This document shows positions 1-44,881 of a stretch of DNA of 64,000 nucleotides, piece by piece. The notes beneath the pieces were generated by a model. It did no database searches, had not been told where the DNA came from, and saw only the letters and a list, made by a program, of their open reading frames with translations. The position numbers were made by a program, and so were the translations under genes. Source of the DNA: Nanobdellota archaeon (lineage in GTDB: Archaea; Nanobdellota; Nanobdellia; CSSed11-243R1); assembly GCA_021162365.1 (NCBI GenBank), contig JAGGYW010000020.1, positions 9,154-73,153 of the forward strand. The letters run 5' to 3'. Within the stretch, counting starts at the first letter, position 1. Each line of letters starts with the position of its first letter.

Positions 1-3000
1 ACACTTTCCATAGTGGAACCGATATAGATTGGATAAAATTCGAGTGTATACAAAATGAATCATACAATATTTCTGTGAGCGACTTAAATATCTACATTCA
101 GGTATATGTCCCTGATGGCTCCTCTCTCTCTTTAGATAGTTTTAACTACTACTATGATGGAAGCAGTTATAACATAAAGAGCTCGAAGGTCGTTTTTTAT
201 TGTAGCGAGAATAGCACGGTATATGTTAAATTAGAGTATAAATATTACGCAACAGCAACATACACTGTAAGTGTTATAAACACAAGTGTGCCAGCCAATG
301 AGTGGGATAACTACTACTTTAATGCTTCTTCAATTTCAACAGATGGTACATTGGTTTCAAAATCCTTCTCGTTCTTTTCTAATGATAAAGACTACTTCAA
401 ATTTGATGCAACTGCTGGAAGTATCTATGTAATTGAAACGAATAATGAGTCTGCAAATGTGGACACATATCTAACTCTTTTTGACACTGATGGAAAGACG
501 ATTATTAAAGAGAATGATGATGCTTCCGTTTATCTTAATTCAAGGATTGTGTGGAAGTGCCCTTCAGATGATACATACTACATTAGGGTTTGGGATAGAT
601 ATGGGAGAGAGGGAGATTATACACTTAAAGTATACTCCCCCACAATCACATCTCTACAGACAGATGGAACAAATGTAGGAAAAACATTTTCTAATGGGGA
701 TGCACACTACTTTAGTTTTTCAGCTACTACCGGCAACAGATATATTATAAAAACAATAAATACCTCCGCAAGCACAGATACTTATCTTAAAGTCTACAAT
801 TCCACATTTGATTTGGTCCAATACAATGATGATACATATTATACTGGCTTGCAAGATAAAAACTCATTGACGACAATATACGCGACAAATACGGACACTT
901 ATTATGTTGAAGTTTCAGACTACTATGTTGCTGGCGGAAGCTATGACATTTCTGTAGACTCGAATGTGCCGACCAAGTATAATGATAATTTTGAAGTTGA
1001 TGATGATTTCGCTCTTTCGAATTCAATTTCAGTTGACGGAACACCACAAACACATTCCTTTTATTACTATGGCGAATCCGATTTTGTCAATTTCTCTGCA
1101 ATTGCAGGAAACACATACAGAATTAAAACAGATAACATTGGTGGTAGAATAGTTGATACTTACTTGGTTCTCTACGATAGCAGTCATAAACTAATAGATT
1201 ATAATGATGACATTGGTAGTAGTTGCAGTCTAACCAACATAGACGATTGTCTTTCGGAGATTGACTTTACGCCAGACACATCAGGTGTTTATTATCTCAA
1301 GATTTGGGATATATCTTCTGCTGGAAATAACTACACCCTCTCTGTAGAACAAAACGGGACAATAACAACCACACTTGTAACACCTTCTGCAGATGTAAAT
1401 GTGACCAAGACCGGAATCTTTGAGTTTACTGTTAATGTTTCATGTAGTGGCGGGAGTTGTGGGGATGTTTCTGTTTATTTAGATCCAAAATATTCTGATA
1501 AAGTTGTGGAGAAGAAGGTATATGCCTCAAAAGAATTGCCAACAACAAGGGGAAGATACATCGTCATATTGAAGAATCCTTCCAGTGAATTTTCTACTTC
1601 ATCTGTAAGTTCTGATGTTAAATCCCTTCAGAAGAAGTTTTTGGATACAGCGCCAGATTTGAAGGTTGTCCGAGAGTATTCCTCATTCCCACTATTGTCT
1701 GTTGAATTAACAGGTGAGCAGCTAAGCGCGCTAAAGGACAATCCTTACATACTAGATGTAGTTCCGGATAGGGTTTTCCATGCTACATTAGATGAGAGTG
1801 TGCCACAAATAAAAGCAAATGATACTTGGAATGTTCAATATGCAAACACAAACATTACAGGATTATACCAAACGGTTTGCATACTTGATACAGGAGTTAA
1901 TTATTCTCATCCAGCACTAGCACATGCATATCTTGGTGGCTATGATTTTGTGAATAACGATAGTGATCCTATGGATGATTCTACTGGGAAAGCATATAGT
2001 CATGGGACACATGTTGCCGGTATAATTGTGTCTAATGACACTATCTACCGAGGCGTTGCTCCAAACGCTAAGTTTGTTGCTATTAAGGTTTTGAATTCAG
2101 TTGGTGGCGGGCAGGCGAGTGACATTCTCGCAGGCATTGATTGGTGTATTAACCATTCTTCACAATATAATATTTCTGTAATATCTATGAGTCTAGGTAC
2201 CGAAGGTGTTGGATGGAATGATACAACTTCGTGCGAGCAGGATAACAAAGAATGGATAGACCCCATCCAAACTGCTGTATCTAACGGTATCGCAGTTGTA
2301 GCTGCTTCAGGTAATGATGGATTCTCTGATAAGATAAATGCGCCAGCTTGCTTAGGGGATGTTATTTCTGTTGGTGCAGTTGACAAGAGCGATGAAGTGA
2401 CTAGTTATTCAAATGCAGCATCCATTTTAGATCTACTCGCTCCTGGAAGTGAAATAAATTCTACATGTAGAAATTGTGGATTTATGAGCATGTCTGGTAC
2501 ATCAATGGCAACACCACATGTTTCGGGAGCAATCTTGCTTTTGAATCAATATGAGAAGCTTCGTTTGGGTAGAAACTTAAAGCCAGACGAGGCATTAAAT
2601 TATCTAAAATCTTCTGGCAAGTCTATTTTAGATCCACGAAATGGGTTATCTTTCCCAAGGGTTGATGTGCTTGCAGCAGTTGAGCTTATGAATGGAACGA
2701 AAGATTTAGTGCCCATGGATTCGGGTACCCCATTCTTTACAACAACACACCCACAATACACAAACACAAGTCAAAACCCCTTTACAAATACTTGCCTTAG
2801 TAATATGAAAGATGGGGACTCATGTTTTGTTACATGGGTGGTTAATGCCACTGGAGCTGAAGATACTACATGGGAGTTTTATGCAGAATCAAAGGGTAAC
2901 TTTGCTGGAAGTGAATTAGATTCAATTTCCTCTAAAGTTAATGTGACTATAATCGCAGATGATTTGCCCCCAAATGTGGTTATAATATCTCCTCTAGATA

Positions 3001-5396
3001 GTCAAGTGTTTGGTAGGGGTGAAGTTCATATTAATGCGAGTTCAACGTGCCCTACCTCCCTTATTTCTCAGGTTTCATTTAAGCTTTTCAATTCAACAGG
3101 TGGGTTGGTGAAAAGCGGTAATTTAACAAAAGTTGTTGGAACATTCTATTGGAATACTTCATTTGATACAGCCAATCTAGCTTCTGGGGATTACATTCTA
3201 AATGTGACATCTGTTAATTCGCTAGGTAAATTGAGCTATGCTACGCGGGCAATAGTTATTGATGGTATTTCGCCAAATGTTATAATTCACACAAGTTACC
3301 CACAAAATTCTAGCACGCCTTATTTTAATTTCACAGCAACAGATGATCATAATCTAAGTTATGTATGGTATAAACTTAATGGAGTCGATGTTGCGAAGTA
3401 TCCTGCAAGCGGAACTTCTTTTTCAAGGAATGATACGCTTAATTTAAACTATCCCGGATGGAATTATGTTAAAATCTATGTAAATGATACCTCAAATAAT
3501 ACAATTAGTCGTATAAAAGAGTTTTATGAAATCTCTAAGATGAATGCAACTAAATGGGTGGATGAACACAACGCAACAATCTCCCCGAGTGGAGATGCAA
3601 TATGGAACAATCAAACATTTAACATATCTTTAAGTACAACACACTTTAACGTTACATTATATGATGTCAATGGAGAGCATGTTTGGTGGGATTATGATTT
3701 CTCTTTTGAGGAGAACAACACTGCCTTGAATAATATCACAGAAGATTATGGATTGACTCCCTACATAAACCTTTATCTTGATGAGAATTTAATTAGAGAT
3801 ACCATTTGCGATGGGGCTAACTGCGAGAATCTTACGAATAACGATTACGCAGAGGTTACCTTCTCTCCTAATTCGACAGGATATTATGCTATATACTCCT
3901 GTGGCAGGGGGATTCCAAGCGACTTTTCTTCATGTGAAAAGTTGGATGAATGTAACTCAACAAACAACATGAATTGTTATAATGATACTCCAACGAAAAC
4001 AATTGTTTACCTAAGTCGATTTTCGACATTAGTTGTAGTGAATGACACTACTCCGCCAAATGTTACTATAAATTCGCCAGAAGATAAAGCATATGATATA
4101 AGTAGTGGAATTTTGGTTAACGTTAGTTCTTCTCCAGATACAGTTGTATGTAATTATTCCATCGACAATGGAGCAAATAGTTCATTATCTAAGAATGGAG
4201 ATTATTTCATATCTACATTTGGTCCGATAAAAAATGGAAACCATAACCTGACTGTGTATTGTTGGGATGGTGCAGGTAATTTAGGGAATGATAGTGTTGA
4301 TTTCACAATTTATGATACTAACGCACCTTCAGTAAGTAGTGTGATTACGGATACTTCTAAGACAGCTGTGGAAATAGACTGGACAACAAATGAACCCTCA
4401 GATGGGAAAGTGACTCTTTATTCTGATAGTGCTTGTGGAAGTGAAAAGACATATAAAACAAGCAACACAATGTCACAGGCGCACTCACTAACGTTCGAGG
4501 ATTTATCCCCTGCTACAGATTACAGTTTTAAGGTCACATCAACTGATTATCAGGGAAATGAAGGCACTTCAATATGTTATACCTTTACAACAGATCCTCT
4601 TGAATCTCAGTCAGATGAAGGTGGAGGGGGTGGAGGAAATAGAACAACACAAACAGTAAGGGAAACTTTCTTCTGGAGCACTATCTCTCAAGGGGAGAGC
4701 GTTGTAGCAGATGTCAGAAGTGAATACATACCTGTAGATTCTTTAGAAATTTATTTGTCGAGTGAGATGATTAATGCAAAGTTGGAAGTCGAGTCCTATG
4801 ATGATAATCCACCACCAGGTGTACCTGAAGCACCCGTAGACATAATATACAAGTACTTTGGGATATCCACCAATTTTAATCAATACATAAATTGGATAAA
4901 GATAAAAATTAAAGTTCCAGCAAGTTGGTTTACTAACAATAACTATGACCCCAACAATGTTAGTTTGTATCATTACAGTTATATTTCTGAGAGGTGGGAA
5001 GAGGAGAATATAACTTATCTTGGTGAGTCAGATGGATATCACTTATATAGTGCCATAGTAAATAGCTTGTCTCCTTTTGCCATTTCTGCCGCAGAGCTTG
5101 AAGTCAAAGAATATTGTGGTAATGGAATATGTAACCAAAGTGCTGGCGAAAATTGTTCCACTTGCGAGGTAGATTGCGGGCTTTGTTTAACTAAAATCAT
5201 AAAAAATGAAACGCAAGGCAATTACACGGCAAGTTCCAACATTACTCCTCCCGAGAGCAATAATAACTTTGAAGTTGGATATTTTGAATATGTATTGATA
5301 GGTGTTGCTGTGGGGATAATTGGATTTTTTGTTATTCAGTTTAAATTACTGTCGAGGATGGAAAGACCAAAAAGAAAGAAGAGAAAGAGGCGATGA
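1..5396 (+). CDS. Surface-anchored subtilisin-like (S8) serine protease, 5'-partial (reading frame open to window start; ORF track start at 75 is an internal GTG)
   Basis: Catalytic triad motifs DTGVNYSHP (Asp), HGTHVAGII (His), GTSMATPHVSGA (Ser). Upstream I9-like propeptide. At least 4 N-terminal ~100-aa PPC-like repeats (pattern YYF..S...DG....SF.F.S..DYFKF.A.AG..Y.I.T.N.....DTYL.L.D..G.....NDD). Multiple Ig/FN3-like beta domains downstream. C-terminal TM helix followed by basic tail PKRKKRKRR. Very many N-x-S/T sequons. No stop codon in frame between nt 3 and 75. Confidence 0.85.
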   Translation, partial: TFHSGTDIDWIKFECIQNESYNISVSDLNIYIQVYVPDGSSLSLDSFNYYYDGSSYNIKSSKVVFYCSENSTVYVKLEYKYYATATYTVSVINTSVPANEWDNYYFNASSISTDGTLVSKSFSFFSNDKDYFKFDATAGSIYVIETNNESANVDTYLTLFDTDGKTIIKENDDASVYLNSRIVWKCPSDDTYYIRVWDRYGREGDYTLKVYSPTITSLQTDGTNVGKTFSNGDAHYFSFSATTGNRYIIKTINTSASTDTYLKVYNSTFDLVQYNDDTYYTGLQDKNSLTTIYATNTDTYYVEVSDYYVAGGSYDISVDSNVPTKYNDNFEVDDDFALSNSISVDGTPQTHSFYYYGESDFVNFSAIAGNTYRIKTDNIGGRIVDTYLVLYDSSHKLIDYNDDIGSSCSLTNIDDCLSEIDFTPDTSGVYYLKIWDISSAGNNYTLSVEQNGTITTTLVTPSADVNVTKTGIFEFTVNVSCSGGSCGDVSVYLDPKYSDKVVEKKVYASKELPTTRGRYIVILKNPSSEFSTSSVSSDVKSLQKKFLDTAPDLKVVREYSSFPLLSVELTGEQLSALKDNPYILDVVPDRVFHATLDESVPQIKANDTWNVQYANTNITGLYQTVCILDTGVNYSHPALAHAYLGGYDFVNNDSDPMDDSTGKAYSHGTHVAGIIVSNDTIYRGVAPNAKFVAIKVLNSVGGGQASDILAGIDWCINHSSQYNISVISMSLGTEGVGWNDTTSCEQDNKEWIDPIQTAVSNGIAVVAASGNDGFSDKINAPACLGDVISVGAVDKSDEVTSYSNAASILDLLAPGSEINSTCRNCGFMSMSGTSMATPHVSGAILLLNQYEKLRLGRNLKPDEALNYLKSSGKSILDPRNGLSFPRVDVLAAVELMNGTKDLVPMDSGTPFFTTTHPQYTNTSQNPFTNTCLSNMKDGDSCFVTWVVNATGAEDTTWEFYAESKGNFAGSELDSISSKVNVTIIADDLPPNVVIISPLDSQVFGRGEVHINASSTCPTSLISQVSFKLFNSTGGLVKSGNLTKVVGTFYWNTSFDTANLASGDYILNVTSVNSLGKLSYATRAIVIDGISPNVIIHTSYPQNSSTPYFNFTATDDHNLSYVWYKLNGVDVAKYPASGTSFSRNDTLNLNYPGWNYVKIYVNDTSNNTISRIKEFYEISKMNATKWVDEHNATISPSGDAIWNNQTFNISLSTTHFNVTLYDVNGEHVWWDYDFSFEENNTALNNITEDYGLTPYINLYLDENLIRDTICDGANCENLTNNDYAEVTFSPNSTGYYAIYSCGRGIPSDFSSCEKLDECNSTNNMNCYNDTPTKTIVYLSRFSTLVVVNDTTPPNVTINSPEDKAYDISSGILVNVSSSPDTVVCNYSIDNGANSSLSKNGDYFISTFGPIKNGNHNLTVYCWDGAGNLGNDSVDFTIYDTNAPSVSSVITDTSKTAVEIDWTTNEPSDGKVTLYSDSACGSEKTYKTSNTMSQAHSLTFEDLSPATDYSFKVTSTDYQGNEGTSICYTFTTDPLESQSDEGGGGGGNRTTQTVRETFFWSTISQGESVVADVRSEYIPVDSLEIYLSSEMINAKLEVESYDDNPPPGVPEAPVDIIYKYFGISTNFNQYINWIKIKIKVPASWFTNNNYDPNNVSLYHYSYISERWEEENITYLGESDGYHLYSAIVNSLSPFAISAAELEVKEYCGNGICNQSAGENCSTCEVDCGLCLTKIIKNETQGNYTASSNITPPESNNNFEVGYFEYVLIGVAVGIIGFFVIQFKLLSRMERPKRKKRKRR

Positions 5397-23263: not shown

Positions 23264-24085
23264 CTAAATAAAAAGAAGTTTCAGTAGGATGTTTCCAAAC
23301 AATATTGTTATTATCAACGATATTAGGAAGGATGGAACGAATGGAATCCCTATTTTAATTTTTACTTTCTTTATCTTTGATTTCGCTTTTTTGAGCTTTT
23401 TAATATCCGAAATTGTTAGGCCAATATTTCGTTTTTTAACATACACTTTCCCATTTAATTTTATGTCGTTAACGAGCCAATCTCCTTCAGTTAGTTTGTC
23501 AATTGGGACATACCTCTCCATTAATTTGTTTTCTATTTTTTTGATGAACAATAGTGATGTAAGGGATATAACCACTATTGCGCCAAGGAATGCAACTGCA
23601 GGAGGCAGAGTATAAAACATTGCAATTATTAATCCCATCGACACAATAAGAGAAAGCTTTTGGTATATGTTAAACTTAAGTTTCTTATGGCTTTTGAGTG
23701 CTAAGATTGCTATTCCGGCAATCCCATAAAATGCACCGACAAACAAGGTGTTTAGTAGGAAGTTTGCGAAAAATGGTATTCTTTCTCCAGGGAAGGAGCA
23801 CATTAAAATACCAATTCCCGCCATTATTTTTACATCTCCTCCCCCCCATTGACCTGTTTTGTACATCATGTATGCAAATCCAGCAAGGGCTGCGAATGAG
23901 ATGGGGACCCAAAGAAGTACACTCACATCTTTACTGAAGATATACCAAATGATTCTTATTGCAATTGCAATTGCAATAAAAAAGTAGCTTAAGAAGTCCG
24001 GGACTTCACGTGTTTTTATGTCATTTATGCTTGCTATAGTTAGCATTATCAATGATGTGGTAATTGCAATTAGTTGAAACAACAT
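23264..24085 (-). CDS. A24-family type IV prepilin / preflagellin peptidase (PibD/FlaK-like)
   Basis: Polytopic membrane protein carrying both catalytic Asp motifs (NDIKTREVPDFL and WGGGDVKIMAGIG). Confidence 0.65.
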   Translation of the reverse strand: MLFQLIAITTSLIMLTIASINDIKTREVPDFLSYFFIAIAIAIRIIWYIFSKDVSVLLWVPISFAALAGFAYMMYKTGQWGGGDVKIMAGIGILMCSFPGERIPFFANFLLNTLFVGAFYGIAGIAILALKSHKKLKFNIYQKLSLIVSMGLIIAMFYTLPPAVAFLGAIVVISLTSLLFIKKIENKLMERYVPIDKLTEGDWLVNDIKLNGKVYVKKRNIGLTISDIKKLKKAKSKIKKVKIKIGIPFVPSFLISLIITILFGNILLKLLFI

Positions 24086-24878: not shown

Positions 24879-25702
24879 ATTTTAAAGTCAACAACGACCC
24901 TCCAAATTCGTGGTGCAAGTTGCCCACATTTTCTCTTCCGTAAGATTCTTGTTTTCCTTCTCAATTTTTTCTCTGCATCTTTTATTTTCTTAATTGCACC
25001 TTTAAACAATTCTTCCTCTGGAAGGAAGAAGTAACAATGCACAATTGCATTTGGTTTTGCTACATAGAAAGCAACATCAAGAAATTCCCACGCATGCATA
25101 GGTAGATTCATTATGATTCTATCTGCCCTGTGTTTCCATCTGTGTTTTTTCACTACTTTTCTACAATCTCCAACATATGCCTCAATCTTGTCTTCAACTT
25201 TGTTTAGCTTTGCATTTTCTTTTAGGTACTTTATCGCGTGCGGATTTATATCAATTACAACAACTTTTTTGGCTCTTTTTGCAGCAGGAATTGCATAGGG
25301 GCCAACGCCTGAAAATAGATCAAAGACAACTTCATCCTTCTTTATTTGATTTACAACTCTCAGGTGTTCTGTTCCAAGCCGTGGCGAGAAGTAAACCTTG
25401 TTTATATCTAATTTTAACCTTACCCCATTCTCAACATGAATTGTTTCTGTCCTTTTTTCTCCTGCAATTACTTTGACTGGTCTTACCCTCTCTTCTCCTG
25501 AGGTAGGTCCTATCTTTTTTACAACAACTTTCACATTCTTATGTAGCTTCATTATCGCGTCCGCAATTATTTTTTCTTTTTTTTCAATATTTGGTGGTAT
25601 CTCTATCTGTGCTATATCCCCCACTATGTCAAAACCACGTCTAACTGAAGCTAATTCCTCCTTACTTAGCTTGCCTTTGAGAATTTCTTTAAGAGTTGCC
25701 AT
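24872..25702 (-). CDS. Met-10+-like class I SAM-dependent tRNA methyltransferase (Trm5/Taw2 family)
   Basis: VFDLFSGVGPYAIPAA SAM motif and NPH...NLP motif characteristic of Trm5/Taw2. Confidence 0.7.
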   Translation of the reverse strand: MATLKEILKGKLSKEELASVRRGFDIVGDIAQIEIPPNIEKKEKIIADAIMKLHKNVKVVVKKIGPTSGEERVRPVKVIAGEKRTETIHVENGVRLKLDINKVYFSPRLGTEHLRVVNQIKKDEVVFDLFSGVGPYAIPAAKRAKKVVVIDINPHAIKYLKENAKLNKVEDKIEAYVGDCRKVVKKHRWKHRADRIIMNLPMHAWEFLDVAFYVAKPNAIVHCYFFLPEEELFKGAIKKIKDAEKKLRRKTRILRKRKCGQLAPRIWRVVVDFKIY

Positions 25703-26654
25703 TGTTTAACACAGAACCCCTTCCAAGAGTTGTTGAGATTTTTACCCCATCTCCAATTTTACACCCAATGTCTAAAATTGAGTTTACAATATGGCAATTG
25801 TTTCCTATTTTATTATCTTCAAATATAACTGAATTTTTTATTATGCAGTCCCTACCAATTTCTGTCCCGTTATATATTACTACAGGACCAACAAGTTTTG
25901 TTCCTTCACCTATTTTTACATTCTCATCTATCCAGTTTTCTTTTCCATATTTTCTTAATATATACGCTGTTGCTTCAAGATAAGAAGATGGTCTCCCCAC
26001 ATCGACCCAAAATGAATCACTTACAAAGCCATTTATCTTTCCACCCTTTTGTAATATTAGTGGGAATAGCATGCCTGTTGAATCGAGAAATTTCTTTGGT
26101 ATATACTCTATGATCTTTGGCTCCATTATGTATACACCCGTAGAAATCAAGTTGCTCGGCTCTTTTCCAATTGGTGGTTTTTCAACAAACTCAGTTATTC
26201 TAATCCCATCCAATTTTGCAACACCATACCTCCATGGCGTCTCCGTTTTGGCTAGAGCTATTGTGACAACAGCAGGGTTTTCTTTATGAAACCCAAACAT
26301 TTCTTTTAAGTTTATATCAGTAATATTATCTCCAAGAACTAATGCAAATGTTTCATTTATCTTAGATTTTTCAACAGCATATTTTATTGCTCCTGCACCA
26401 CCCAGTCTTTGGGGCTCTTTTATGAAATAGATATTTGCATTTACCTTATTTTCAGAAAAATATTTCTCAATTGCTTCAAATAACTCGTGGCTCCCTATTG
26501 ATATCCATATTTCATTAACCCCATTTTCAATTAAGTAATCAACGATGTGTCTTAGCATAGGTTTATCTACAATAGGGAGCATGTGTTTTGGCCTAACAAA
26601 TGTGAGCGGTTGCAGCCGTGTTCCAAAACCACCGGCTAAGATTATTGCTTTCAT
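25689..26654 (-). CDS. Sugar-1-phosphate nucleotidylyltransferase with C-terminal left-handed beta-helix (hexapeptide) domain
   Basis: MKAIILAGGFGTRLQPLT NTP-transferase signature. C-terminal hexapeptide repeats (IGEGTKLVGPVVI..., IGNNCHIVNSIL...). Confidence 0.8.
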   Translation of the reverse strand: MKAIILAGGFGTRLQPLTFVRPKHMLPIVDKPMLRHIVDYLIENGVNEIWISIGSHELFEAIEKYFSENKVNANIYFIKEPQRLGGAGAIKYAVEKSKINETFALVLGDNITDINLKEMFGFHKENPAVVTIALAKTETPWRYGVAKLDGIRITEFVEKPPIGKEPSNLISTGVYIMEPKIIEYIPKKFLDSTGMLFPLILQKGGKINGFVSDSFWVDVGRPSSYLEATAYILRKYGKENWIDENVKIGEGTKLVGPVVIYNGTEIGRDCIIKNSVIFEDNKIGNNCHIVNSILDIGCKIGDGVKISTTLGRGSVLNNGNS

Positions 26655-27568
26655 TTTTTGTCCCTCAAATAGTTTAAGGTGTCAATAATTGCTTCCTTTA
26701 TGTTATACTTGGGTGCCCATCCAAGCGACTTTAGTTTCTTAATTGAAAGCAACATTTGTGGGATGTCCCCAGGCCAACCAATCTTCCCACCAGTAAACTT
26801 AAATTTGACATTACTTAGTCCAAGTTCATTAACAATTAGTTCTGCAATTCCCTTAACAGAAATCTGTTCTTCGCTTCCCACATTAAATACATCATATTTT
26901 TTGTTTAACTTTTCTGCTGTGAAAACTGTTGCATCAACACAATCTTTTACATGCAAGTATGATTTCTTTTGTGTTCCATCGCCAAGGATTTCAAGTTCAT
27001 TTGGATTTTTCAATAACTTGTGATAAAAATCAAATATTATTCCATGCGTTGATTTCGGGCCAATGATATTTGCATATCTTAACGATAGGCAGTTTATTCC
27101 ATACAAATTTGAGTAACTCATCATATAATTTTCACTTGATGCTTTTGCGGCCCCGTAGTTGCTGATGGGCTTTATTGGTGCTTCTTCAGGTGTTGGAATT
27201 TCAGCTATCCCATATACAACAGAACTTGATGAGAAAACAAATTTCTTGACATCATTTATTCTTGCTGCTTCCAGGACATTAAGCGTTCCCTTTGCATCAA
27301 TTTCAAAGTTTTTAATTGGTTCATAATAGCTCTTTCTGACATCTGGGTCTGCAGCAAGGTGATAGATAATCTCTACATCCTTTGCGGCTTCTTTTAGTTT
27401 TTCTAAATCTAGGATACTTCCTTTGATTATTTCACAGTTTATTCCATCTAAAAATTCCTTTTTTCCGCTCGAAAAGTTGTCATAAACAATTACTTCACGT
27501 TCTTTTGAGAGTTTTTCAACTAAGTGACTCCCAATGAATCCTGCCCCACCCGTTACTAATATTTTCAT
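26651..27568 (-). CDS. NAD-dependent nucleotide-sugar epimerase/dehydratase (UDP-glucose 4-epimerase family)
   Basis: MKILVTGGAGFIGSHL Rossmann motif and YxxxK catalytic region. Confidence 0.8.
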   Translation of the reverse strand: MKILVTGGAGFIGSHLVEKLSKEREVIVYDNFSSGKKEFLDGINCEIIKGSILDLEKLKEAAKDVEIIYHLAADPDVRKSYYEPIKNFEIDAKGTLNVLEAARINDVKKFVFSSSSVVYGIAEIPTPEEAPIKPISNYGAAKASSENYMMSYSNLYGINCLSLRYANIIGPKSTHGIIFDFYHKLLKNPNELEILGDGTQKKSYLHVKDCVDATVFTAEKLNKKYDVFNVGSEEQISVKGIAELIVNELGLSNVKFKFTGGKIGWPGDIPQMLLSIKKLKSLGWAPKYNIKEAIIDTLNYLRDKK

Positions 27569-27643
27569 AAAGACTCTTAGATTTTTAACATTAAAAAAGG
27601 TTGCTTAATAAGTTTTTTAACTAATTATCTGTGTATATCATAT

Positions 27644-28285
27644 ATGGTAAAACCAATTTTTATTGGAATGGGTGGTAGCTCAGGTTCTGGAAAAACAACT
27701 GTTGCAAGGAAATTACTTGAGGAACTCCCTAAGATAAGTAAAAAGATAGGGAAAGAATTGAAGGGTGTTGTTATATCCATGGATGATTACTACAAAGATT
27801 TATCTCATCTACCTTTAAGCGAAAGGAAGAAAGTTAACTTAGATGACCCAAGGCAAATTGATTTTAACTTGTTAAATAGGCAAATGAATCAGCTTTTGAA
27901 GAGAAGGGCCATTAAGAAGCCAATTCATTCTTTTGAAAAGTTTACTCAATTGAAGAGGAGGGAGTTGGTTGGCCCCGTTGATGTAATAATCCTTGAGGGG
28001 ATATTTGCTCTCTATAACAAGAAGTTGTTAAGTAAAATGGATTATAAGGTGTTTGTAATGACAGACCCAAGAATATCCATCCTACGTAGAATTTATAGGG
28101 ATACTATTGAACGTGGAAGAGATTTGAAAGATTCAATAGAGTATACTTTAAACGTTGTTATCCCCATGCATGATAAATATGTTTTTCCGACGCGGAAAAA
28201 TGCAGATTTTTTAATAATTTGGGAAGGTAATGCAACTAGGGCAATCAGTGGGCTAAAAGCATTAATTATTGACTATTTCGAATAA
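27644..28285 (+). CDS. udk: Uridine kinase
   Basis: P-loop GMGGSSGSGKTT, DDYYKD, and the udk hallmark RRIYRDTIERGRD. Confidence 0.8.
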   Translation: MVKPIFIGMGGSSGSGKTTVARKLLEELPKISKKIGKELKGVVISMDDYYKDLSHLPLSERKKVNLDDPRQIDFNLLNRQMNQLLKRRAIKKPIHSFEKFTQLKRRELVGPVDVIILEGIFALYNKKLLSKMDYKVFVMTDPRISILRRIYRDTIERGRDLKDSIEYTLNVVIPMHDKYVFPTRKNADFLIIWEGNATRAISGLKALIIDYFE

Positions 28286-28320
28286 AAATATTTATTAACT
28301 CCTCTTAGGTTTCCTTATTT

Positions 28321-29763
28321 ATGTCAGAGTTAAGAAAAATAGTTAAAAGCTCAATTTATGTTTTTGCAGCGTTTGTAATTGCTGCTGTATTTGGATACCT
28401 TTCTAAAGTTTTGTTGGCAAGGATGCTTGGTCCATCCGAGTTTGGTATGTTCACTCTCTCACTTACTGTTACATATATTTTCTCTGCTTTTGCAATAGCA
28501 GGTGTCGGTACATCTATCACATACTATCTATCCAAAGAAAAAGACAAAAGTAGGAGAAATGCATTTTTCTCTGCGTTATTTTTAATTTCGGTTTTATCTC
28601 TCTTACTGCTTTCAGTTGTGCTTATTTTATTTCCTTCAAAAATCGCATCTATATTTGGAAACACTAATCTGGTAAATATCTCATATTTCCTTGCGGGGTT
28701 CACTTTTCTTTATGGGATTACACGCGTTATGTATTCTATACTTCGTGGGGAGGAAAAATCGAAAGTGTTTGCAATATTCTATGCAGCAATTCCCACATTA
28801 TATTTTACTCTAATCTACTTACTAAAAGTGTCTACGGCACGTCAAGCGCTTCTGTTTTACGTCGTTACATATCTTTCAATTGATTTGTTTTTGTTTCCAT
28901 ATATCTCCAAAAAAGTTAAGTTTGTAAAACCAGATTTTAATCTTGTTAAGAAGGTGTTTTCTTTTTCTGTTGTGTTGTTTTTGGTTGAGGTCCTTTTTAG
29001 CTTAAGAAGATGGACAGATGTTTGGATGCTTAGCTTGCTTTCAAGTGTAGCAAATATTGGGTTTTATAATGTTGCCGCGCTTTCTGCTTTTGCATTTAAC
29101 ATGGCGTTGATGTCTATGAACTTTTTATATCTCCCAGTATCAAATAAGTTATTCCATCAAAACAAGTTATCCCGTCTCCGCGAAGTGTACAACAAAATTT
29201 GTTTTATACTGACGATGGTAGTTTCCCCATTTGCCATTGCTCTTACTATATTTGCCCCACAGTTTATCTCGCTTGTGTTTGGAAGGACCTATCTTCCTTC
29301 TGTAGCTCCTTTTTCAATTTTAATGGTATCCACTTTAGTGAATGTTATGTTCGGCCCTAATTGGACAAATTTAGTAATAAGGCAAGAGAAAAGACTTTTA
29401 GTTTTATTTGCATTGTTTGCACTTATATTGAATGCTATCCTTAACTATTTGTTTATACCAACTTGGGGTATTGCTGGCGCCGCAATAGCAACAGCAGTTT
29501 CAATTATTGCGTGGAATGTAATAACTACAATTGCTATTTGGAAAAAGCAGAAGATGACGCCTTTCTCTAAGAGCATGTTTAAATCTTTGTCTCTTGCATT
29601 GGTAGTCTCAATTCCATTCTTGGTTGCAAGATACTTTGTTTCTCTTTCGGTTCTTTGGGCAATAATCTTTGGAATAGGATATTTATCCCTTTATACATTG
29701 CTTGTAGATAGATTTGTAATAAAATTAAGGAAGGTAGTTAGTTTTGTATTTAGACTTTCATAA
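28321..29763 (+). CDS. Wzx-like oligosaccharide flippase (MOP/polysaccharide biosynthesis family, about 12 TM)
   Basis: 480-aa polytopic membrane protein with the repeated 6+6 TM topology typical of PST/Wzx flippases, inside the glycosylation cluster. Confidence 0.6.
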   Translation: MSELRKIVKSSIYVFAAFVIAAVFGYLSKVLLARMLGPSEFGMFTLSLTVTYIFSAFAIAGVGTSITYYLSKEKDKSRRNAFFSALFLISVLSLLLLSVVLILFPSKIASIFGNTNLVNISYFLAGFTFLYGITRVMYSILRGEEKSKVFAIFYAAIPTLYFTLIYLLKVSTARQALLFYVVTYLSIDLFLFPYISKKVKFVKPDFNLVKKVFSFSVVLFLVEVLFSLRRWTDVWMLSLLSSVANIGFYNVAALSAFAFNMALMSMNFLYLPVSNKLFHQNKLSRLREVYNKICFILTMVVSPFAIALTIFAPQFISLVFGRTYLPSVAPFSILMVSTLVNVMFGPNWTNLVIRQEKRLLVLFALFALILNAILNYLFIPTWGIAGAAIATAVSIIAWNVITTIAIWKKQKMTPFSKSMFKSLSLALVVSIPFLVARYFVSLSVLWAIIFGIGYLSLYTLLVDRFVIKLRKVVSFVFRLS

Positions 29764-29797
29764 GGTTTTTGAATAATTGATATGACGTTGGAGAATA

Positions 29798-31105
29798 CTA
29801 TGTGAGGATATTCCTTACTATCTCAGCTGGTTTTTTAGATAATTTCTTAACTTTTGGAATGTTCTTTCTTAACTTTTCTTTTATCTTTGTTTTGTTGTGT
29901 AATAATTGTTCAAACTTATCTTTTAAGATATTAAGAGACACCTTGTCTATGGGGATCACATATTCTTCTAGATTTAGCATTCTCATTATTCCTCTTGTTT
30001 TTGGTAGATATTCTATCGCGATTGTCGGTACGTACATAGATAACGCGAATATGTTAGAGTGCATTCGTGTCCCTACGAAATAGTCCATACCACCTATGAG
30101 TGCCTTTATTTCAAGTGGGGAAAGATCTTCTTTTATGATAATAAATTTACTTTTGTGCTTAACTCTAGTTTTTATTAGACTTGCTATTTCTCTGTCGTCA
30201 CTATACTTTTCGATGTTTACACTTTTGACGGAAGGAGTTAATATGACTTGTGGGATAAACACAGTGTGCATTTTATATTTTACCCACAAGAAGTCGATGA
30301 ATCTTGCTATTGTATTGATATAATTTTCAATTCTTTCTTTTTTATCCTTTGAGTGTGGGAATTTCCAGTATCTTACAGTTAGCCCAACCCTTTTTTTAGG
30401 TAAGTCGTATCTTTTTGATATAGAAGCTATGTCACTGCTGGATGGATTTGGTAAGCTAAATGCTGCGTCAGCGACTAATATTGCTTCTTTTTTTACTTTC
30501 ATTTTTTTTAAATATTCTAATGATACCTTCTCCCTTACAGTAATTAGTGTGACTCTGTTTAACACGTATCTTGCGAACATAATTAAAATTTTTGAGTAGA
30601 AAGGGCCTATAGACTGTGCATATATCACCACTGGTTTTTTCAGCAATATCCCAAAAAATATATTTAATAAATGAATTACACTCCCAAAACCACCGAGCAA
30701 GAATCCACCACCACAGCTTATGATTATATCTGCTGAAATATACTTGTCAATAGCTAGTTTCTCTTCTTTTGTTAATAACTTGTATATTCTAATGTTAAAT
30801 ACCCTCATTAACAATATAAAAAGTAGTATCCTTACTGCTATTACTGAGAGCATCATTGCCCACACAATCTTAGATTTTGAGTTTGTAAATGGTGTGTTAT
30901 ATCTTGGTGAGCCAATAAGATTTCTAACAACTGTTATGTTGTATTTTTGATATAGTTTTATATCTTCTTGTGGTGTAAATGTAGCAACACTAATCGATGG
31001 ATTATCTAGAGTTTTGTTTAAGTCATTAATCATTCCTAGTATTATCCCCGCGTCTCCTTTGTTTAGTCGGGTGCATAAGTCAATTATATGTATTTTCGTT
31101 TCCAT
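29798..31105 (-). CDS. Polysaccharide pyruvyl transferase family protein (CsaB/WcaK-like)
   Basis: N-terminal N-x-GD motif (LNKGDAGIILG) and the size class of pyruvyl transferases. Start chosen at METKIHII. Confidence 0.45.
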   Translation of the reverse strand: METKIHIIDLCTRLNKGDAGIILGMINDLNKTLDNPSISVATFTPQEDIKLYQKYNITVVRNLIGSPRYNTPFTNSKSKIVWAMMLSVIAVRILLFILLMRVFNIRIYKLLTKEEKLAIDKYISADIIISCGGGFLLGGFGSVIHLLNIFFGILLKKPVVIYAQSIGPFYSKILIMFARYVLNRVTLITVREKVSLEYLKKMKVKKEAILVADAAFSLPNPSSSDIASISKRYDLPKKRVGLTVRYWKFPHSKDKKERIENYINTIARFIDFLWVKYKMHTVFIPQVILTPSVKSVNIEKYSDDREIASLIKTRVKHKSKFIIIKEDLSPLEIKALIGGMDYFVGTRMHSNIFALSMYVPTIAIEYLPKTRGIMRMLNLEEYVIPIDKVSLNILKDKFEQLLHNKTKIKEKLRKNIPKVKKLSKKPAEIVRNILT

Positions 31106-32183
31106 TTTTGGATAGCCCCATATATACATTGAGTATTTTTTTTATTATGGTATCCCACGCAAATATTTTTTTTACGGTGTTTGTAGCGTTTCTTGACAAT
31201 TTAATTCTAAGTTTTTTGTCGTTGTGGAGTTTAGTGATTGCTCTTGTAAGACTCCTTACCGAATTTGGTTTGATTAAAATTCCATTCTTGCCGTCTTTGA
31301 TCATCTCTGGGATACCACCCACATTGGTTGCGATTACTGGTTTTCCATAGCTCATTGTTTCGAGAATAGCAATTGGAAATGCTTCATGTAGTGATGGGAA
31401 AACAACCATTTCAGCGGATAGTATCTCCTTTTTGAGCTTGCTGTATGGGAGGTACCCAAGTAACTTCACATTTTTTATTTTTTTATGTTTAATATATTCC
31501 TTTATTCTATTGTATAAAGGACCTTTCCCCACGATGTAAAATGTAAACCCTGTTAGAACTCGCGCGGCATCTAATAGGGTGAAGATCCCCTTTTCCTTAC
31601 TTAATCTTCCGAAAAAAAGAATTTTTCTTTGTGCGTATTTATGGTTGCTCACTTTTGTCGTATTAACTCCATTGTAAATAACTTTAATTTTACTTTTAGA
31701 CACACCACTTCTTAAGAGGATTTCTTTGGAGTAATTAGAGACAGCGATTATATTATCGGATTTATTTAGGTAGTGCACCAATATTTTTCTAAGTATTATG
31801 TTAGTTATTGATTTATGCCCGCCAGTTAGATGAAAAGTTACACTCACAGTTTTCCCACAAAATTTTAGCAAAGGGATGAGAAAAACAAAAGGAAACTCCC
31901 CAAGTTGTATTGAGAATAACTTGGGTAGTTTATCTCTGTTTAATAGGACATACAAGTATGCATACAATACGAAGGAAATGCTTCTTATGTATCTCCCAAA
32001 ATTTATAAATGGGATCTTATGGATTTTAATTTTTTTTAGATAATATGAGGGGTACTTATATGTAATTACTTCGACGTGGACTCCTTTTCTTTTAAGTAAT
32101 CTTATCATATCTTCTGCATATTTTGTGACACCCCCGCCTTTGTACCATTTGCTCTTTAATGGAGTTATAATGCATATTTCCAT
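31080..32183 (-). CDS. GT4-family glycosyltransferase
   Basis: C-terminal E-x7-E motif region (EAFPIAILETMSYGKPVIAT). Confidence 0.8.
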   Translation of the reverse strand: MEICIITPLKSKWYKGGGVTKYAEDMIRLLKRKGVHVEVITYKYPSYYLKKIKIHKIPFINFGRYIRSISFVLYAYLYVLLNRDKLPKLFSIQLGEFPFVFLIPLLKFCGKTVSVTFHLTGGHKSITNIILRKILVHYLNKSDNIIAVSNYSKEILLRSGVSKSKIKVIYNGVNTTKVSNHKYAQRKILFFGRLSKEKGIFTLLDAARVLTGFTFYIVGKGPLYNRIKEYIKHKKIKNVKLLGYLPYSKLKKEILSAEMVVFPSLHEAFPIAILETMSYGKPVIATNVGGIPEMIKDGKNGILIKPNSVRSLTRAITKLHNDKKLRIKLSRNATNTVKKIFAWDTIIKKILNVYMGLSKNGNENTYN

Positions 32184-33238
32184 TATTTCACCAACGTAAT
32201 TATTTCCTTAACAATCTTATCCCAGCTATATTCTTTTTTCACTTTCTTAAATCCATTTTCCGCGATTTTTTGGCGTAGTTTTTTATTTTTTGCAAGTTTG
32301 TTTATCCACATTTCTAATTTTGATATGTCTCCCTTCGTTAGTATCACTAGTTCTTTTCCGCTTTTGAATCTTTTTTTAATGTCTCCGATATCATATGCGA
32401 TACATGCAGTCCTTGCTGCCATCGCTTCTAATAATACTATTGGCATACCCTCATAATAAGAAGGCATCACAAAAATGTCAGCGTGCTTTAGGTAGGGAGT
32501 AACATCATTAACAAACCCAATAAAGTGACAGTTTGGTATTCTATCACACATCTTTTTTACTTTATCCTTTTCTGGGCCTTTTCCAATGATATAAACACCA
32601 ATCTCTTTTGACAATTGCTTGGATACTCTTATAATATCATAAACACCTTTTGATGGGATAAGTCTACCTACAAAAAGGACATTAACTTCATACTTGAACA
32701 CTTTCGGCTTCTTAACTCTTTTTCTGAATTTATTAATATCAACCCCATTTGGGATAACTGGCACTTTTTTTCCTCTAACTTTGGATACTTCCTTTGCGCT
32801 TTCATAATCAACCGCGAATACTTTGGTAGCGTGTTTAAAAGTGTAATGCTCCATTAACTTTAATATAAACTTTACAGGTTTTGGCCAGTCGCTCCTTAAA
32901 TATCCTATACCGTGTGCAACATAAACTATTGGAATCTTTTTGAAAAAGAAAGTTGTTCCAAAACCATGGACTGCATCATTTACATAAATCACGTCTGGCT
33001 TTATTTTTCTAAGTTCTAGAAGCGAGAAAGGTAGCATGGAAAGTTTATTTGTGTATCTACCAGGTATATAATATACTCTATGTATTTTAACCCCATTGAG
33101 TCTTACTTTGTTGTCTTTATTAACAATTAAGTGGACTTCGTTTCCAAGCTTTGCCAATCTAGGAGCTACATTTTTTATGTGTGTTTCAATTCCACCCGGT
33201 TCATTTAGGTTTTTTAGTCCAACGATTGCAACTCTCAT
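32183..33238 (-). CDS. GT4-family glycosyltransferase
   Basis: EGMPIVLLEAMAARTACIAYD motif. Start set at MRVAIVG, which abuts the upstream gene stop. Confidence 0.8.
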   Translation of the reverse strand: MRVAIVGLKNLNEPGGIETHIKNVAPRLAKLGNEVHLIVNKDNKVRLNGVKIHRVYYIPGRYTNKLSMLPFSLLELRKIKPDVIYVNDAVHGFGTTFFFKKIPIVYVAHGIGYLRSDWPKPVKFILKLMEHYTFKHATKVFAVDYESAKEVSKVRGKKVPVIPNGVDINKFRKRVKKPKVFKYEVNVLFVGRLIPSKGVYDIIRVSKQLSKEIGVYIIGKGPEKDKVKKMCDRIPNCHFIGFVNDVTPYLKHADIFVMPSYYEGMPIVLLEAMAARTACIAYDIGDIKKRFKSGKELVILTKGDISKLEMWINKLAKNKKLRQKIAENGFKKVKKEYSWDKIVKEIITLVK

Positions 33239-33615
33239 TTCCACACCACCATAACCACACCAGCTACGATGGTAAATATCCCTATCCATCTAATTAATGT
33301 GATTCTCTCGCCTAAGACGAAGACAGACAATATCGCCGCTACTATATAACTTACTGCGATTATAGGGTATAACATACTTAGCTCTCCTTTTGAAAGGGCT
33401 GCAAGATAAATAATCGTTGAAATGGCATATATAACCACCCCGGCTAAGATATATCTGTTTGTTGCGATTATCTTTAAGAATTGCTTTGTCATTTCTATAA
33501 CAGATATCTCTCCAACATCTGTCATTCCTTTTTTGAAGAGCACTTGGGCACTTCCACCCAAAATTGCCGCACTTACTACAAGCAACAATATAATTACCTC
33601 CATTTTACCACCCAT
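33235..33615 (-). CDS. Small 4-TM DMT/EamA-type membrane protein (ArnE/ArnF-like candidate lipid-linked sugar flippase subunit)
   Basis: 126 aa, four predicted TM helices, conserved G/E in the middle helices; context in the glycosylation operon. Confidence 0.4.
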   Translation of the reverse strand: MGGKMEVIILLLVVSAAILGGSAQVLFKKGMTDVGEISVIEMTKQFLKIIATNRYILAGVVIYAISTIIYLAALSKGELSMLYPIIAVSYIVAAILSVFVLGERITLIRWIGIFTIVAGVVMVVWK

Positions 33616-33619
33616 TTTC

Positions 33620-34063
33620 TCACCAAATTATGTTTAGCACACCAATTGTGCTAAGGGTTACAATTACTCCTGCAATTGTTACCCCAATAGATATCACAAT
33701 GAAGGATTTCCACCATTCGATATCAAATAACCAAGCAATTATTGTTCCAGTCCATGCGCCAGTTAGAGGTAGGGGGATTGCAACAAAAGGGATCAATCCC
33801 CATATGCCATACTTCTCCATTTGTTTATGTCCTTTTTTTCTAATCCTTTCGATTTGCTTATGCATAAAATTATTTTTTCTTAAATGTTCGTAAAAAAATT
33901 CGAGCCCGAAGTATATGGGAAAAAACACTAACGAATTAAATATCACTGCAACAATAAAAACAATAAGTGGATTCATTCCAAGCGCGATTCCTGTGGGAAT
34001 TGCCCCACGTAGTTCGCTTATTGGTATAACTGAAAGTAAAATTACAACTAATTCATTAATCAT
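33620..34063 (-). CDS. Small polytopic membrane protein, COG2426-like
   Basis: SELRGAIPTGIALG motif and a 4-TM layout. The family name 'small multidrug export protein' is from memory. Start chosen at MINELVV, abutting the aglH-like stop. Confidence 0.35.
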   Translation of the reverse strand: MINELVVILLSVIPISELRGAIPTGIALGMNPLIVFIVAVIFNSLVFFPIYFGLEFFYEHLRKNNFMHKQIERIRKKGHKQMEKYGIWGLIPFVAIPLPLTGAWTGTIIAWLFDIEWWKSFIVISIGVTIAGVIVTLSTIGVLNIIW

Positions 34064-35106
34064 ATCATCACCAAAAACACAACAGAGCACCATATAACGA
34101 ATGAGAGTATAATTATTAAACTAACTTGCCATTCCTTAAACCTACCTAGCTTCATTACAACATGTGTGAGGGAATACACTTTTCTGTATGGTGCTTTCAG
34201 AGTCTCATCTTTTTGTAGTACACCAAAGTTTTCTGCTTTAAACTTACTCCTTGCTTTTAGGATTAACTCGATAAACCATGGGGCAAAGAGAAGCAATGCG
34301 AATTTTTCTACATTTCCGATTATTGCTACAATTGCCGTAGCACCGCCAATTAAATAATCGAGACCGCCAGGGAAAATTTTTGCAGGATACCAATTATATC
34401 TTATAAAAGCAATTAGCGTTGCTACGAGTACAAATGAGATTATTGTAGCACCATATGCTCCGTGAACGTATGAATACATCCCTAGAAATGACAATAATAC
34501 AATACCTAACCCCGGCGTTAATCCATTAAATCCAGCAAGCATGTTTGTCGCATTTGCAGCTCCAAGAACTGCAATTGGAATTATAACAAGTGGATATAAA
34601 ATTCCAACTTCAATGGCGCCAAAGAAAGGAAGGTGTAATATGTGCTCTCCAGCACCTGTTGCCATTAATGGTAATGCTGCAAGCGCCATAAGCAGTGGTT
34701 GTTGGTATTGTGCTAATCCAATTCTTTTATGTTTTTCAAATCCATTCTTCCCTTCTCTTTTTTTAATAAGTGTAGTTAATTCATCGAGCGAGGCAATGAA
34801 TGTTAGGATAATTAGTGATGTAATTGCACTTAAAAAGTATAGTAATTCTTTTTCCGTCATTGAATGAATTATGTATTGCTGGGCAAATATGTATGCAAAC
34901 ACCCCAATTATAAACCCAAATATGATTGGTGGTGCACCCATTTCCGGGATTTTAGGATTTCCTCTTTTCATCAGATCTCTGCCTACAATACCCTCAAGTT
35001 TTAGGATTCTAATAAATTGTGGTGTTATTGCATACGTTGTTAAGAATGCAAGAAAGGAAGGGATTAAAATGGAAAGATACATCTTACCACCCCTCTTCAT
35101 TTTCAA
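34060..35106 (-). CDS. Polyprenyl-phosphate N-acetylhexosamine-1-phosphate transferase (MraY/WecA/AglH family, GT4 Pfam PF00953)
   Basis: Polytopic membrane protein with the conserved NATNMLAGFNGL motif (N-x-x-N-x-x-D-G-hh-D-G-L equivalent). Confidence 0.75.
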   Translation of the reverse strand: MKMKRGGKMYLSILIPSFLAFLTTYAITPQFIRILKLEGIVGRDLMKRGNPKIPEMGAPPIIFGFIIGVFAYIFAQQYIIHSMTEKELLYFLSAITSLIILTFIASLDELTTLIKKREGKNGFEKHKRIGLAQYQQPLLMALAALPLMATGAGEHILHLPFFGAIEVGILYPLVIIPIAVLGAANATNMLAGFNGLTPGLGIVLLSFLGMYSYVHGAYGATIISFVLVATLIAFIRYNWYPAKIFPGGLDYLIGGATAIVAIIGNVEKFALLLFAPWFIELILKARSKFKAENFGVLQKDETLKAPYRKVYSLTHVVMKLGRFKEWQVSLIIILSFVIWCSVVFLVMI

Positions 35107-44137: not shown

Positions 44138-44808
44138 TTTAATCCCTTAAAGAGTTTGTTAATTTCCTTAGGTGCCCCACTTGCTACAATTTTACCATTA
44201 ACCATTAAGTGAGCTTTATCTGCAATTGAAGTCATACTTTCTTTATGGGTGATTAATAAAATAGTGCTCCCATTCTTATTCATCTCAAGAATAATTTTTT
44301 TTATTCTATTTATAGAAACCATGTCAATTCCAGAATCAGGCTCATCTAAGATAATTAACTCTGGATTCGCTGCAAGAAGAGATGCTAATTCCACCCTTTT
44401 CCTTTCTCCACCACTTAAACTATCATCTAAAAACCTCTCCGAATATTTAGCAGGAAGCCCAACTTTTTCCAGTATTTTTCTAATTTCTTCAATTGATTTT
44501 GCGCTATCTATTTTAATATATTCTCTAATTTTTATACCCTCAAAAGATGGGGGGCTTTGTTGCATAAATCGTATACCTTGCTTAGCTCTTTTAGTTATAG
44601 AAAGGTTAGATATTTCCCTCTCTTTAAATAAAATTTTTCCATTTGCTTTTTCTATACCCATAATTGCTCTTGCAAGGGTTGATTTGCCTGCCCCATTTGC
44701 ACCAAGAACAGCATGTATTTCTCCTTTATTTATCGAAAAAGAAATGTTTCTAAGGATGCTTCTTCCTTCCTTTTCCAAAGAGACATCTACTAACCTTAGG
44801 ATGTGCAT
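44134..44808 (-). CDS. sufC: SufC Fe-S cluster assembly ABC ATPase
   Basis: Walker A GANGAGKSTL, ABC signature LSGGE, Walker B ILDEPDSGID, and H-loop. Confidence 0.85.
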   Translation of the reverse strand: MHILRLVDVSLEKEGRSILRNISFSINKGEIHAVLGANGAGKSTLARAIMGIEKANGKILFKEREISNLSITKRAKQGIRFMQQSPPSFEGIKIREYIKIDSAKSIEEIRKILEKVGLPAKYSERFLDDSLSGGERKRVELASLLAANPELIILDEPDSGIDMVSINRIKKIILEMNKNGSTILLITHKESMTSIADKAHLMVNGKIVASGAPKEINKLFKGLK

Positions 44809-44881
44809 ATGTCAGGATAGATATTATCTGCTTAAAAGTTTAATGATTAGTTTTAAAAAGAGAGGAATTTTGTTCCAAATC

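Follow-up and report, generated by a model that had tools for sequence, protein, structure and literature searches.

A large membrane-anchored, sequon-rich subtilisin-type protease encoded by a DPANN archaeon is a fairly ordinary member of an uncharacterized DPANN-wide family

The 64,000-nucleotide (nt) stretch analyzed here (the window; Nanobdellota archaeon contig JAGGYW010000020.1, positions 9,154 to 73,153) begins with one open reading frame (ORF), in frame 3 at window positions 3..5396 (+), which encodes 1797 amino acids (aa), ends with a stop codon at 5394-5396, and is open at its 5′ end. A sequence-only reading had described its product as a giant extracellular S8 protease with a C-terminal membrane anchor and pre-peptidase C-terminal (PPC) domains ahead of the I9 propeptide and S8 domain, and domain matches support this description. 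We conclude that the protein is a large cell-surface, membrane-anchored subtilisin-type protease of a small DPANN archaeon of the symbiotic type and a fairly ordinary member of a DPANN-wide, uncharacterized family. It is probably a Sec-secreted, type I membrane-anchored S8A zymogen of a Nanoarchaeia/Woesearchaeota-type DPANN archaeon, glycosylated by AglB, from which I9 would be cut off while the enzyme is kept on the cell.

The catalytic domain is intact. Peptidase_S8 (PF00082) matches aa 623-851 with an E value of 7e-47 (160.5 bits versus a cut-off of 21.8), and the catalytic residues lie in canonical motifs: D629 (ILDTG), H667 (HGTHVAG), N771 (SGN), and S834 (GTSMA). These four residues are invariant in four orthologues and map in PDB alignments to subtilisin D32, H64, N155, and S221, respectively. 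Among PDB entries, the domain is closest to a Bacillus-type intracellular subtilase (7Y6M) and to Tk-SP (3AFG). The Pfam scan showed no PA-domain insert.

A word-index search identified three colinear full-length relatives, P0001 (1881 aa, 54% identical), P0002 (1891 aa, 40%), and P0003 (2222 aa, 34%). In a four-way alignment with these proteins, the window copy begins at residue 81 of P0001; the ~80 aa absent upstream correspond to a signal peptide, a short linker, and ~20 aa of the first PPC-like repeat. An exact 46-nt search for the upstream contig in metagenome contigs gave no match, and the single further contig carrying window sequence (L001; JGI 3300017593) is shorter; the N terminus was therefore inferred from the orthologues, which start with Sec-type signals (e.g., MGVSKGLVLIILLILIFGVAHA/D, with the slash marking the cleavage site). 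For a wider view of the family, an exhaustive HMMER search with query aa 1-1200 returned 4946 cluster representatives (50%-identity clusters) at E ≤ 1e-30, and family-derived hidden Markov models (HMMs) were mapped onto the best 150 of them; because the query itself has PPC repeats, this ranking favors PPC-bearing matches, and counts among the best 150 are not population frequencies. Among those with both PPC-like and S8 matches, 51 had a Sec-type start.

All four copies of the PPC-like repeat precede I9-S8 (Table 1), contrary to the C-terminal position behind the PPC name. Pfam PPC (PF04151) matched three stretches (37.9 bits versus a cut-off of 25.9), an HMM built from the protein's own four repeats delimited four units, the first truncated, and an AlphaFold2 (AF2) model of aa 1-510 (predicted local distance difference test [pLDDT], 75) contains four beta-sandwiches. 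The top PDB fold match of this model is the tandem collagen-binding domains (CBDs) of ColG (5IKU; E value, 1e-10), which belong to the PPC family. The sequence-only reading had proposed at least four repeats before I9 and the subtilisin domain, and four were found by the repeat HMM and in the AF2 model; its suggestion that the array runs on upstream of the window was not borne out, since the orthologues place only the missing ~80 aa there and the total is four. The repeat HMM detects four units in P0001 (E values of 1e-26 to 1e-36), four in P0002, five in P0003, and one in P0004, and many family representatives align from query residue ~327 onward. At the protein level, the four repeats are 18 to 40% identical to one another, with repeat 3 being 35 to 40% identical to repeats 2 and 4; because identities are this low, the duplications are old.

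Between the array and the catalytic domain lie a small conserved module and an I9-like propeptide. C481, C486, D494, and P495 of the small module (aa 453-500) are invariant in the four-way alignment, and the module has no Pfam or NCBIfam match. In PDB alignments, subtilisin residue 20 corresponds to aa 617 and D32 to D629, a register that maps the maturation bond to L596/D597: the junction HATL/DESVPQIKA aligns with Y(-1)/A1QSVP of subtilisin E, so that A1-Q-S-V-P corresponds to D597-E-S-V-P. L596 is invariant in four orthologues, and among the 90 relatives with the xxS[VI]PxI motif, 70 have Leu at P1. Six homologues have an above-cut-off Inhibitor_I9 (PF05922) match directly N-terminal to S8 (P0001, 23.3 bits; P0002, 29.9; P0004, 37.5; P0005, 27.8; P0069, 26.9; P0096, 24.8). 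Together, the junction alignment, the conserved Leu, and these matches argue for a classical autoprocessed propeptide, cut at the predicted site L596/D597.

The C terminus carries the anchor. Translation and a hydropathy scan confirmed the glycine linker (EGGGGGGN, aa 1538-1545), Cys-rich module, transmembrane (TM) helix, and polybasic tail named in the sequence-only reading. The only hydrophobic segment in the 1797 aa spans ~aa 1760-1784 and is followed by 9 K/R in 14 residues; the tail after the helix is 13 aa long. The Cys-rich module is the sole motif of its kind in the window, all six of its Cys residues are invariant in the four-way alignment, and it matches nothing in Pfam or NCBIfam. 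Overlooked in the sequence-only reading was a PGF-pre-PGF domain (TIGR04213), with scores of 56.6 and 63.8 bits (cut-off, 28). A PGF-CTERM signal normally follows such a domain, and the C terminus looks tripartite (spacer, TM helix, and basic tail), as would be expected of an archaeosortase-processed protein in which a lipid anchor takes the place of the C-terminal TM segment. We consider this alternative highly improbable. No PGF motif or other conserved signature precedes the TM helix in four orthologues, the last 103 aa match no PGF-CTERM or other sorting-signal model, and no archaeosortase turned up in the gene scans, which took in part of the window ORFs. PGF-CTERM/archaeosortase sorting was thus rejected in favor of a retained TM helix and basic tail.

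The same terminal cassette ends a 2496-aa, repeat-rich surface protein in a Methanosarcinales metagenome-assembled genome (MAG) (L004, CAYTWW010000011.1, 3959..11449), where a six-Cys module (CGDGTCNKYEDCASCAEDCGEC) is followed by an acidic/Pro linker, a TM helix, and KRKK. That protein has no match to the family S8 profile, so the six-Cys module, TM helix, and basic tail form a reusable archaeal anchor module, and the Cys module may be widespread.

The ectodomain is rich in N-glycosylation sequons (N-x-S/T, where x is not P). The window protein has 63 (3.5 per 100 aa), where composition predicts 30.7, an observed/expected ratio (O/E) of 2.05. In 2000 global shuffles the maximum was 46 (z = 7.0), local 60-aa shuffles also gave z = 7.0, and there are 32 instances of the reversed motif [ST]-x-N. 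N-x-T is found at 2.8 times and N-x-S at 1.45 times expectation, with only T and S clearly enriched at +2. The other 49 window ORFs have 0.55 sequons per 100 aa (O/E, 1.29), a density 6.4 times lower than that of the protease (Poisson P = 4e-4 for the protease sequons against the O/E 1.29 baseline), and N and S+T are each about twice background in the protease. The excess over the N/S/T-composition expectation is therefore real, as the sequence-only reading had supposed; it is due partly to composition and partly to a further, approximately twofold selection for the motif. All 63 sequons are N-terminal to the TM helix.

High sequon density is a property of the family, and the earlier emphasis on it as something special to this protein was overstated. 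O/E is 2.3 to 2.4 in the orthologues, with 14 sequon columns common to all four aligned sequences, and the window copy has the lowest O/E of the four full-length members first aligned. Across 150 relatives, nearly all of which are similarly sequon-rich, the median is 2.4 to 2.6. The window also encodes the corresponding machinery (Table 1): AglB/STT3 at 35084..37669 (-) adjoins an AglH-like gene of glycosyltransferase family 4 (GT4), and 25689-33289 holds two GT4 genes, a pyruvyl transferase, a flippase, and nucleoside diphosphate (NDP)-sugar enzymes. The polysaccharide pyruvyl transferase (29798..31129, -), which lies among the GT4 genes, flippase, and AglB, is a hint that this archaeon pyruvylates its N-glycan or some other surface glycan.

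These features are consistent with the following course of events. After export, the ectodomain would receive abundant N-glycans from the AglB pathway, whose genes lie in the window as well. The I9-like domain would serve as intramolecular chaperone and inhibitor until cleavage at the conserved L596/D597 frees the catalytic domain from it. With the C-terminal TM helix as the sole anchor, this cleavage would part the enzyme from an N-terminal piece comprising four PPC/collagen-binding-like sandwiches of the Ca-binding type, the small module, and I9, and that piece might then be degraded, shed, or retained noncovalently. The active protease would stay on the cell, spaced from the membrane by a ~860-aa stalk (the st1 domain, Ig/FN3 modules, PGF-pre-PGF, and the Cys module), where it could degrade external or host-surface proteins. 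The suggestion that the protein is an adhesin is weakened by this arrangement, since a PPC array upstream of the predicted propeptide cleavage site would not stay covalently joined to the anchored enzyme.

Several observations weigh against this reading. In the Pfam annotation of the window protein, PPC and Peptidase_S8 exceed their cut-offs, but Inhibitor_I9 (aa 518-593) scores 20.9 bits, just under its cut-off of 21.2. The AF2 model of the stalk is poor, which leaves its length and rigidity as guesses. The PPC region of 58 homologues has a sequon O/E of 2.79, as rich as the rest of these proteins, which is unexpected for a throw-away propeptide and suggests that the PPC part has a role of its own. 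A disposable, sequon-poor PPC array as a family trait was rejected on the same value. In the window copy the PPC array (aa 1-452, nt 3-1358) has an O/E of 1.24 versus 2.2 to 2.4 elsewhere in the protein; this orthologue seems to have lost sequons specifically within the array.

Two alternatives bear on these points. The first is a two-chain surface complex or host-binding device, in which the fragment of four PPC domains and I9 is retained noncovalently or persists as a separate surface protein and serves in targeting or adhesion, delivering the protease to a host S-layer or an insoluble substrate. Precedents for a two-chain state are the PCSK9 prodomain and Plasmodium SUB1 p31, which remain bound, and the WprA-derived CWBP23 of Bacillus subtilis, a separate surface protein. 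The fold match of the PPC domains to collagen-binding domains fits this possibility, as do the PPC regions of relatives, whose sequon load equals that of the mature part and suggests a stable extracellular existence. Some relatives, moreover, carry beta-helix/NosD or DUF11 arrays before the cassette that resemble functional passengers rather than chaperones, and the family is DPANN-wide, a group in which SPEARE proteins set a precedent for surface giants combining protease and adhesion functions (PMC6642349). Classical I9 propeptides, however, are degraded once the enzyme is activated, and we regard the two-chain arrangement as unlikely.

The second alternative, close to the S-layer-associated adhesin of the sequence-only reading, is an uncleaved adhesin or structural envelope glycoprotein, in which the I9-like domain serves as a spacer, the PPC repeats of the intact chain form an outward-facing adhesive tip, and proteolysis is secondary. 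A C-terminal anchor, a long beta-rich stalk, distal binding-type domains, a glycosylation potential typical of archaeal envelope proteins, and the subthreshold I9 score of the window copy would all suit such a protein. Against it, the family conserves both the catalytic residues and a maturation junction of the subtilisin type with Leu at P1, I9 passes its cut-off in homologues, and an uncut I9 would leave the enzyme inhibited. We therefore judge this alternative improbable and favor the cleaved, membrane-held protease.

PPC-like repeats occur before S8 in 53 of the best 150 representatives (one copy in 43, two in 2, three in 3, four in 4, and five in 1) and after S8 in 2, so the placement of PPC N-terminal to S8 is normal in this clade; the sequence-only reading had taken PPC ahead of the propeptide to be unusual. 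PPC-Subt and (PPC)2-Subt architectures were already recorded in bacteria in a 2008 survey, where they are rare (PMC2605481). The full architecture (three to five PPC repeats, small module, I9 in all but one, S8, st1, Big_7, Ig, mid region, Ig, FN3, and PGF-pre-PGF) was found in 7 clusters plus fragments among the best 150, with the Cys module detected in 4 of the 7, and is common to P0038/P0184, P0001, P0002, P0003, P0039, P0040, and P0041. Within the same 150, the small module accompanies S8 in 58, PGF-pre-PGF is present in 37, and ~60% have a C-terminal TM helix. A wider alignment (A2) with distant PPC proteins was dropped because it aligned poorly (0 to 27% identity).

Named members of the family are S8 family serine peptidases or hypothetical proteins from Candidatus Nanoarchaeia, Nanoarchaeota, Woesearchaeota, Micrarchaeota, and Aenigmatarchaeota. 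Among them are the orthologues MDD5239302.1 (Candidatus Nanoarchaeia archaeon) and MBS3107590.1 (Candidatus Woesearchaeota archaeon), both annotated “S8 family serine peptidase” and likewise uncharacterized; database orthologues differ from the window protein in sequence (40 to 57% identity) and in PPC copy number (1 to 5). A 50% identical copy is present in the GTDB representative Nanobdellati archaeon.

In P0069, P0044, P0058 (5092 aa), and P0113 (5051 aa), the PPC-module-I9-S8 cassette lies 1,300-3,800 residues into a giant protein, behind a beta-helix/NosD array in P0069 and a DUF11 array in P0044. Variable N-terminal “passengers” thus precede the propeptide: four PPC domains in the window protein, and beta-helix/NosD or DUF11 arrays of >1,300 aa in relatives. 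A speculative extension, to which we give little weight at present, is that PPC-small module-I9-S8 forms a general self-cleaving delivery device in DPANN archaea. Any sequence ahead of the I9 junction would leave the cell within the zymogen, then be released or noncovalently retained by the membrane-anchored subtilase, and act as a glycosylated host- or substrate-binding factor. Were this so, the device would be a candidate for how DPANN episymbionts attach to and feed on their hosts.

Table 1. Features of the window protein and of the glycosylation cluster in the same window (positions are those of the window; aa are residues of the window protein)
Feature	Position	Strand	Basis
PPC-like repeat 1, aa 1-95, cut by window edge	3..287	+	Repeat HMM, P0001-P0003 alignment, AF2 beta-sandwich
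PPC-like repeat 2, aa 106-212	318..638	+	Pfam PPC (best stretch aa 128-196), repeat HMM, AF2, ColG CBD fold match
PPC-like repeat 3, aa 214-322	642..968	+	Repeat HMM, AF2
PPC-like repeat 4, aa 338-452, copy common to single-PPC relatives	1014..1358	+	Repeat HMM
Small conserved module between PPC and I9, aa 453-500, ...FEFTVNVSCSGGSCGDVSVYLDP	1359..1502	+	Alignment, relatives
I9-like propeptide, aa 518-596, ending at predicted autoprocessing site L596/D597	1554..1790	+	Pfam, PDB alignments
Subtilase S8A catalytic domain, aa 597-895	1791..2687	+	Pfam PF00082
Post-catalytic conserved domain “st1,” aa 896-990, two invariant Cys	2688..2972	+	Kept after S8 in most relatives; low-confidence AF2
Two Ig-like modules: Big_7, aa 990-1068; weaker Cadherin-like/Big_7, ~aa 1105-1170	2970..3527	+	Segment Pfam scan; AF2 strands, pLDDT 55-80
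Mid region of ~170 aa with 6 Cys, aa 1176-1345	3528..4037	+	AF2 pLDDT 30-45; conserved in closest subfamily only
Ig-like module (weak Big_13, aa 1384-1436), then FN3 (aa 1441-1530)	4038..4607	+	Segment Pfam scan; FN3 AF2 pLDDT ~70-76
Gly-rich linker (SQSDEGGGGGGNRT)	4608..4649	+	Translation
PGF-pre-PGF domain (TIGR04213), aa 1559-1695	4677..5087	+	NCBIfam; AF2 pLDDT 55-84
Six-Cys juxtamembrane module CGNGICNQSAGENCSTCEVDCGLC, aa 1705-1728	5115..5186	+	Translation, alignment
N/S/T-rich spacer (aa 1729-1759), TM helix (~aa 1760-1784), polybasic cytoplasmic tail SRMERPKRKKRKRR, stop	5187..5396	+	Hydropathy scan, translation
N-glycosylation cluster: NDP-sugar enzymes, flippase, pyruvyl transferase, GT4 genes, AglH-like gene, AglB/STT3	25689..37669	.	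Pfam scans

Between the catalytic domain and the anchor, the “about ten” Ig/FN3-like domains counted in the sequence-only reading were an overcount. Four modules match profiles (Table 1), two of them above cut-off in the segment Pfam scan: Big_7 at aa 990-1068 (26.8 bits) and fn3 at aa 1441-1530 (30.2 bits), the latter segment also exceeding the cut-off for Pur_ac_phosph_N (32.3 bits). The st1 domain (aa 896-990) and the mid region (~aa 1175-1345) have no match in Pfam or NCBIfam. The AF2 model of aa 896-1797, built from a 4-sequence alignment, has a mean pLDDT of 51, and its Foldseek matches are generic strings of Ig, FN3, and MG domains with template modeling (TM) scores of ≤0.15; we used this model only as a picture of a beta-rich stalk resembling beads on a string, since it is unfit for domain counting.

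The genes around the protease are archaeal housekeeping genes: LigT, topoisomerase I (TopoI), TrmB, M24, PolB, NFACT, cis-prenyltransferase, TyrRS, Lhr, and CCA-adding enzyme. The protease is followed by LigT in the window and in L002, L006, and L007 (the loci of P0001 to P0003), with TopoI next where the contig extends far enough (L002 and L006). The same gene position in the four loci examined identifies the protease as a vertically inherited gene of a DPANN archaeon. Its stop codon overlaps the start of the LigT-like gene (2′,5′ RNA ligase/phosphoesterase) in an ATGA at 5393-5396, and a like stop-start overlap joins the LigT-like gene to the topoisomerase I gene at 5956-5959, which suggests that the surface protease and housekeeping genes share one transcription unit. 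In the closest orthologue's genome, the protease is immediately preceded by a 969-aa ORF with no Pfam match (L002, 7022..9931; L003, 4031..6940); the P0002 locus (L006) lacks this ORF and has ProRS as the upstream neighbor. Between the protease and the glycan cluster lies a Peptidase_A24 gene (23264..24085, -), a leader peptidase of the type IV prepilin/archaellin type and relevant to the pilus-based attachment that is often considered for DPANN archaea. Two long ORFs, 44134..44808 (-) and 44249..45934 (+), overlap by ~560 nt, and at most one of them is likely to be a real gene. The 64-kb window contains no tRNA gene according to ARAGORN and no Rfam family at the gathering threshold.

Extracellular S08A peptidases in DPANN archaea are mentioned in passing in one MAG paper (PMC8561730); literature searches on DPANN subtilisin surface proteins and on PGF-pre-PGF found nothing specific. 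DPANN archaea, whose genomes are tiny, rely on other cells, and surface proteases are obvious candidates for a part in how they attach to hosts and acquire amino acids. The window protein is not an isolated case. Sequon-rich subtilases with a membrane anchor and a conserved PPC-module-I9-S8 head make up a large family spread across DPANN archaea, to which it belongs, and many of them carry no database label beyond “S8 family serine peptidase” or “hypothetical protein.” The single gene is mostly ordinary, and the family, although unsurprising, merits description. The practical value of the analysis lies in a defined family, a predicted maturation site at L596/D597, and a proposal for the fate of the PPC array that can be put to the test.

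Archaeal pyrolysin, lactococcal lactocepin PrtP, and the streptococcal C5a peptidase ScpA are surface-held S8A subtilases (MEROPS) with long beta-sandwich/FN3 extensions. Like the window protein, these cell-envelope subtilases have a signal peptide, a propeptide, and an S8 domain, followed by the extension and a C-terminal anchor. The window protein differs in having a TM helix and polybasic tail after PGF-pre-PGF and a six-Cys module instead of LPXTG, in carrying four PPC domains and the small module ahead of the propeptide with no PA insert found, and in a catalytic domain nearest to plain subtilisins and Tk-SP. SPEARE proteins of Nanohaloarchaeota are likewise DPANN proteins that are mostly extracytoplasmic, with a serine-protease region, binding domains, and a TM segment near the C terminus; they are 3,300-8,500 aa long, have laminin-G (LamG) domains, and share a conserved core that is a cytoplasmic type III restriction-enzyme (REase) region (PMC6642349). 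With its 13-residue cytoplasmic tail and no REase or LamG match found in the Pfam scan, the window protein resembles them only loosely. The PPC/CBD domains of bacterial secreted proteases (PF04151; ColG s3a-s3b, 5IKU) share fold, sequence family, tandem arrangement, and linkage to a secreted protease with the array described here, but are C-terminal to the catalytic domain, whereas those of the window protein are N-terminal and upstream of I9.

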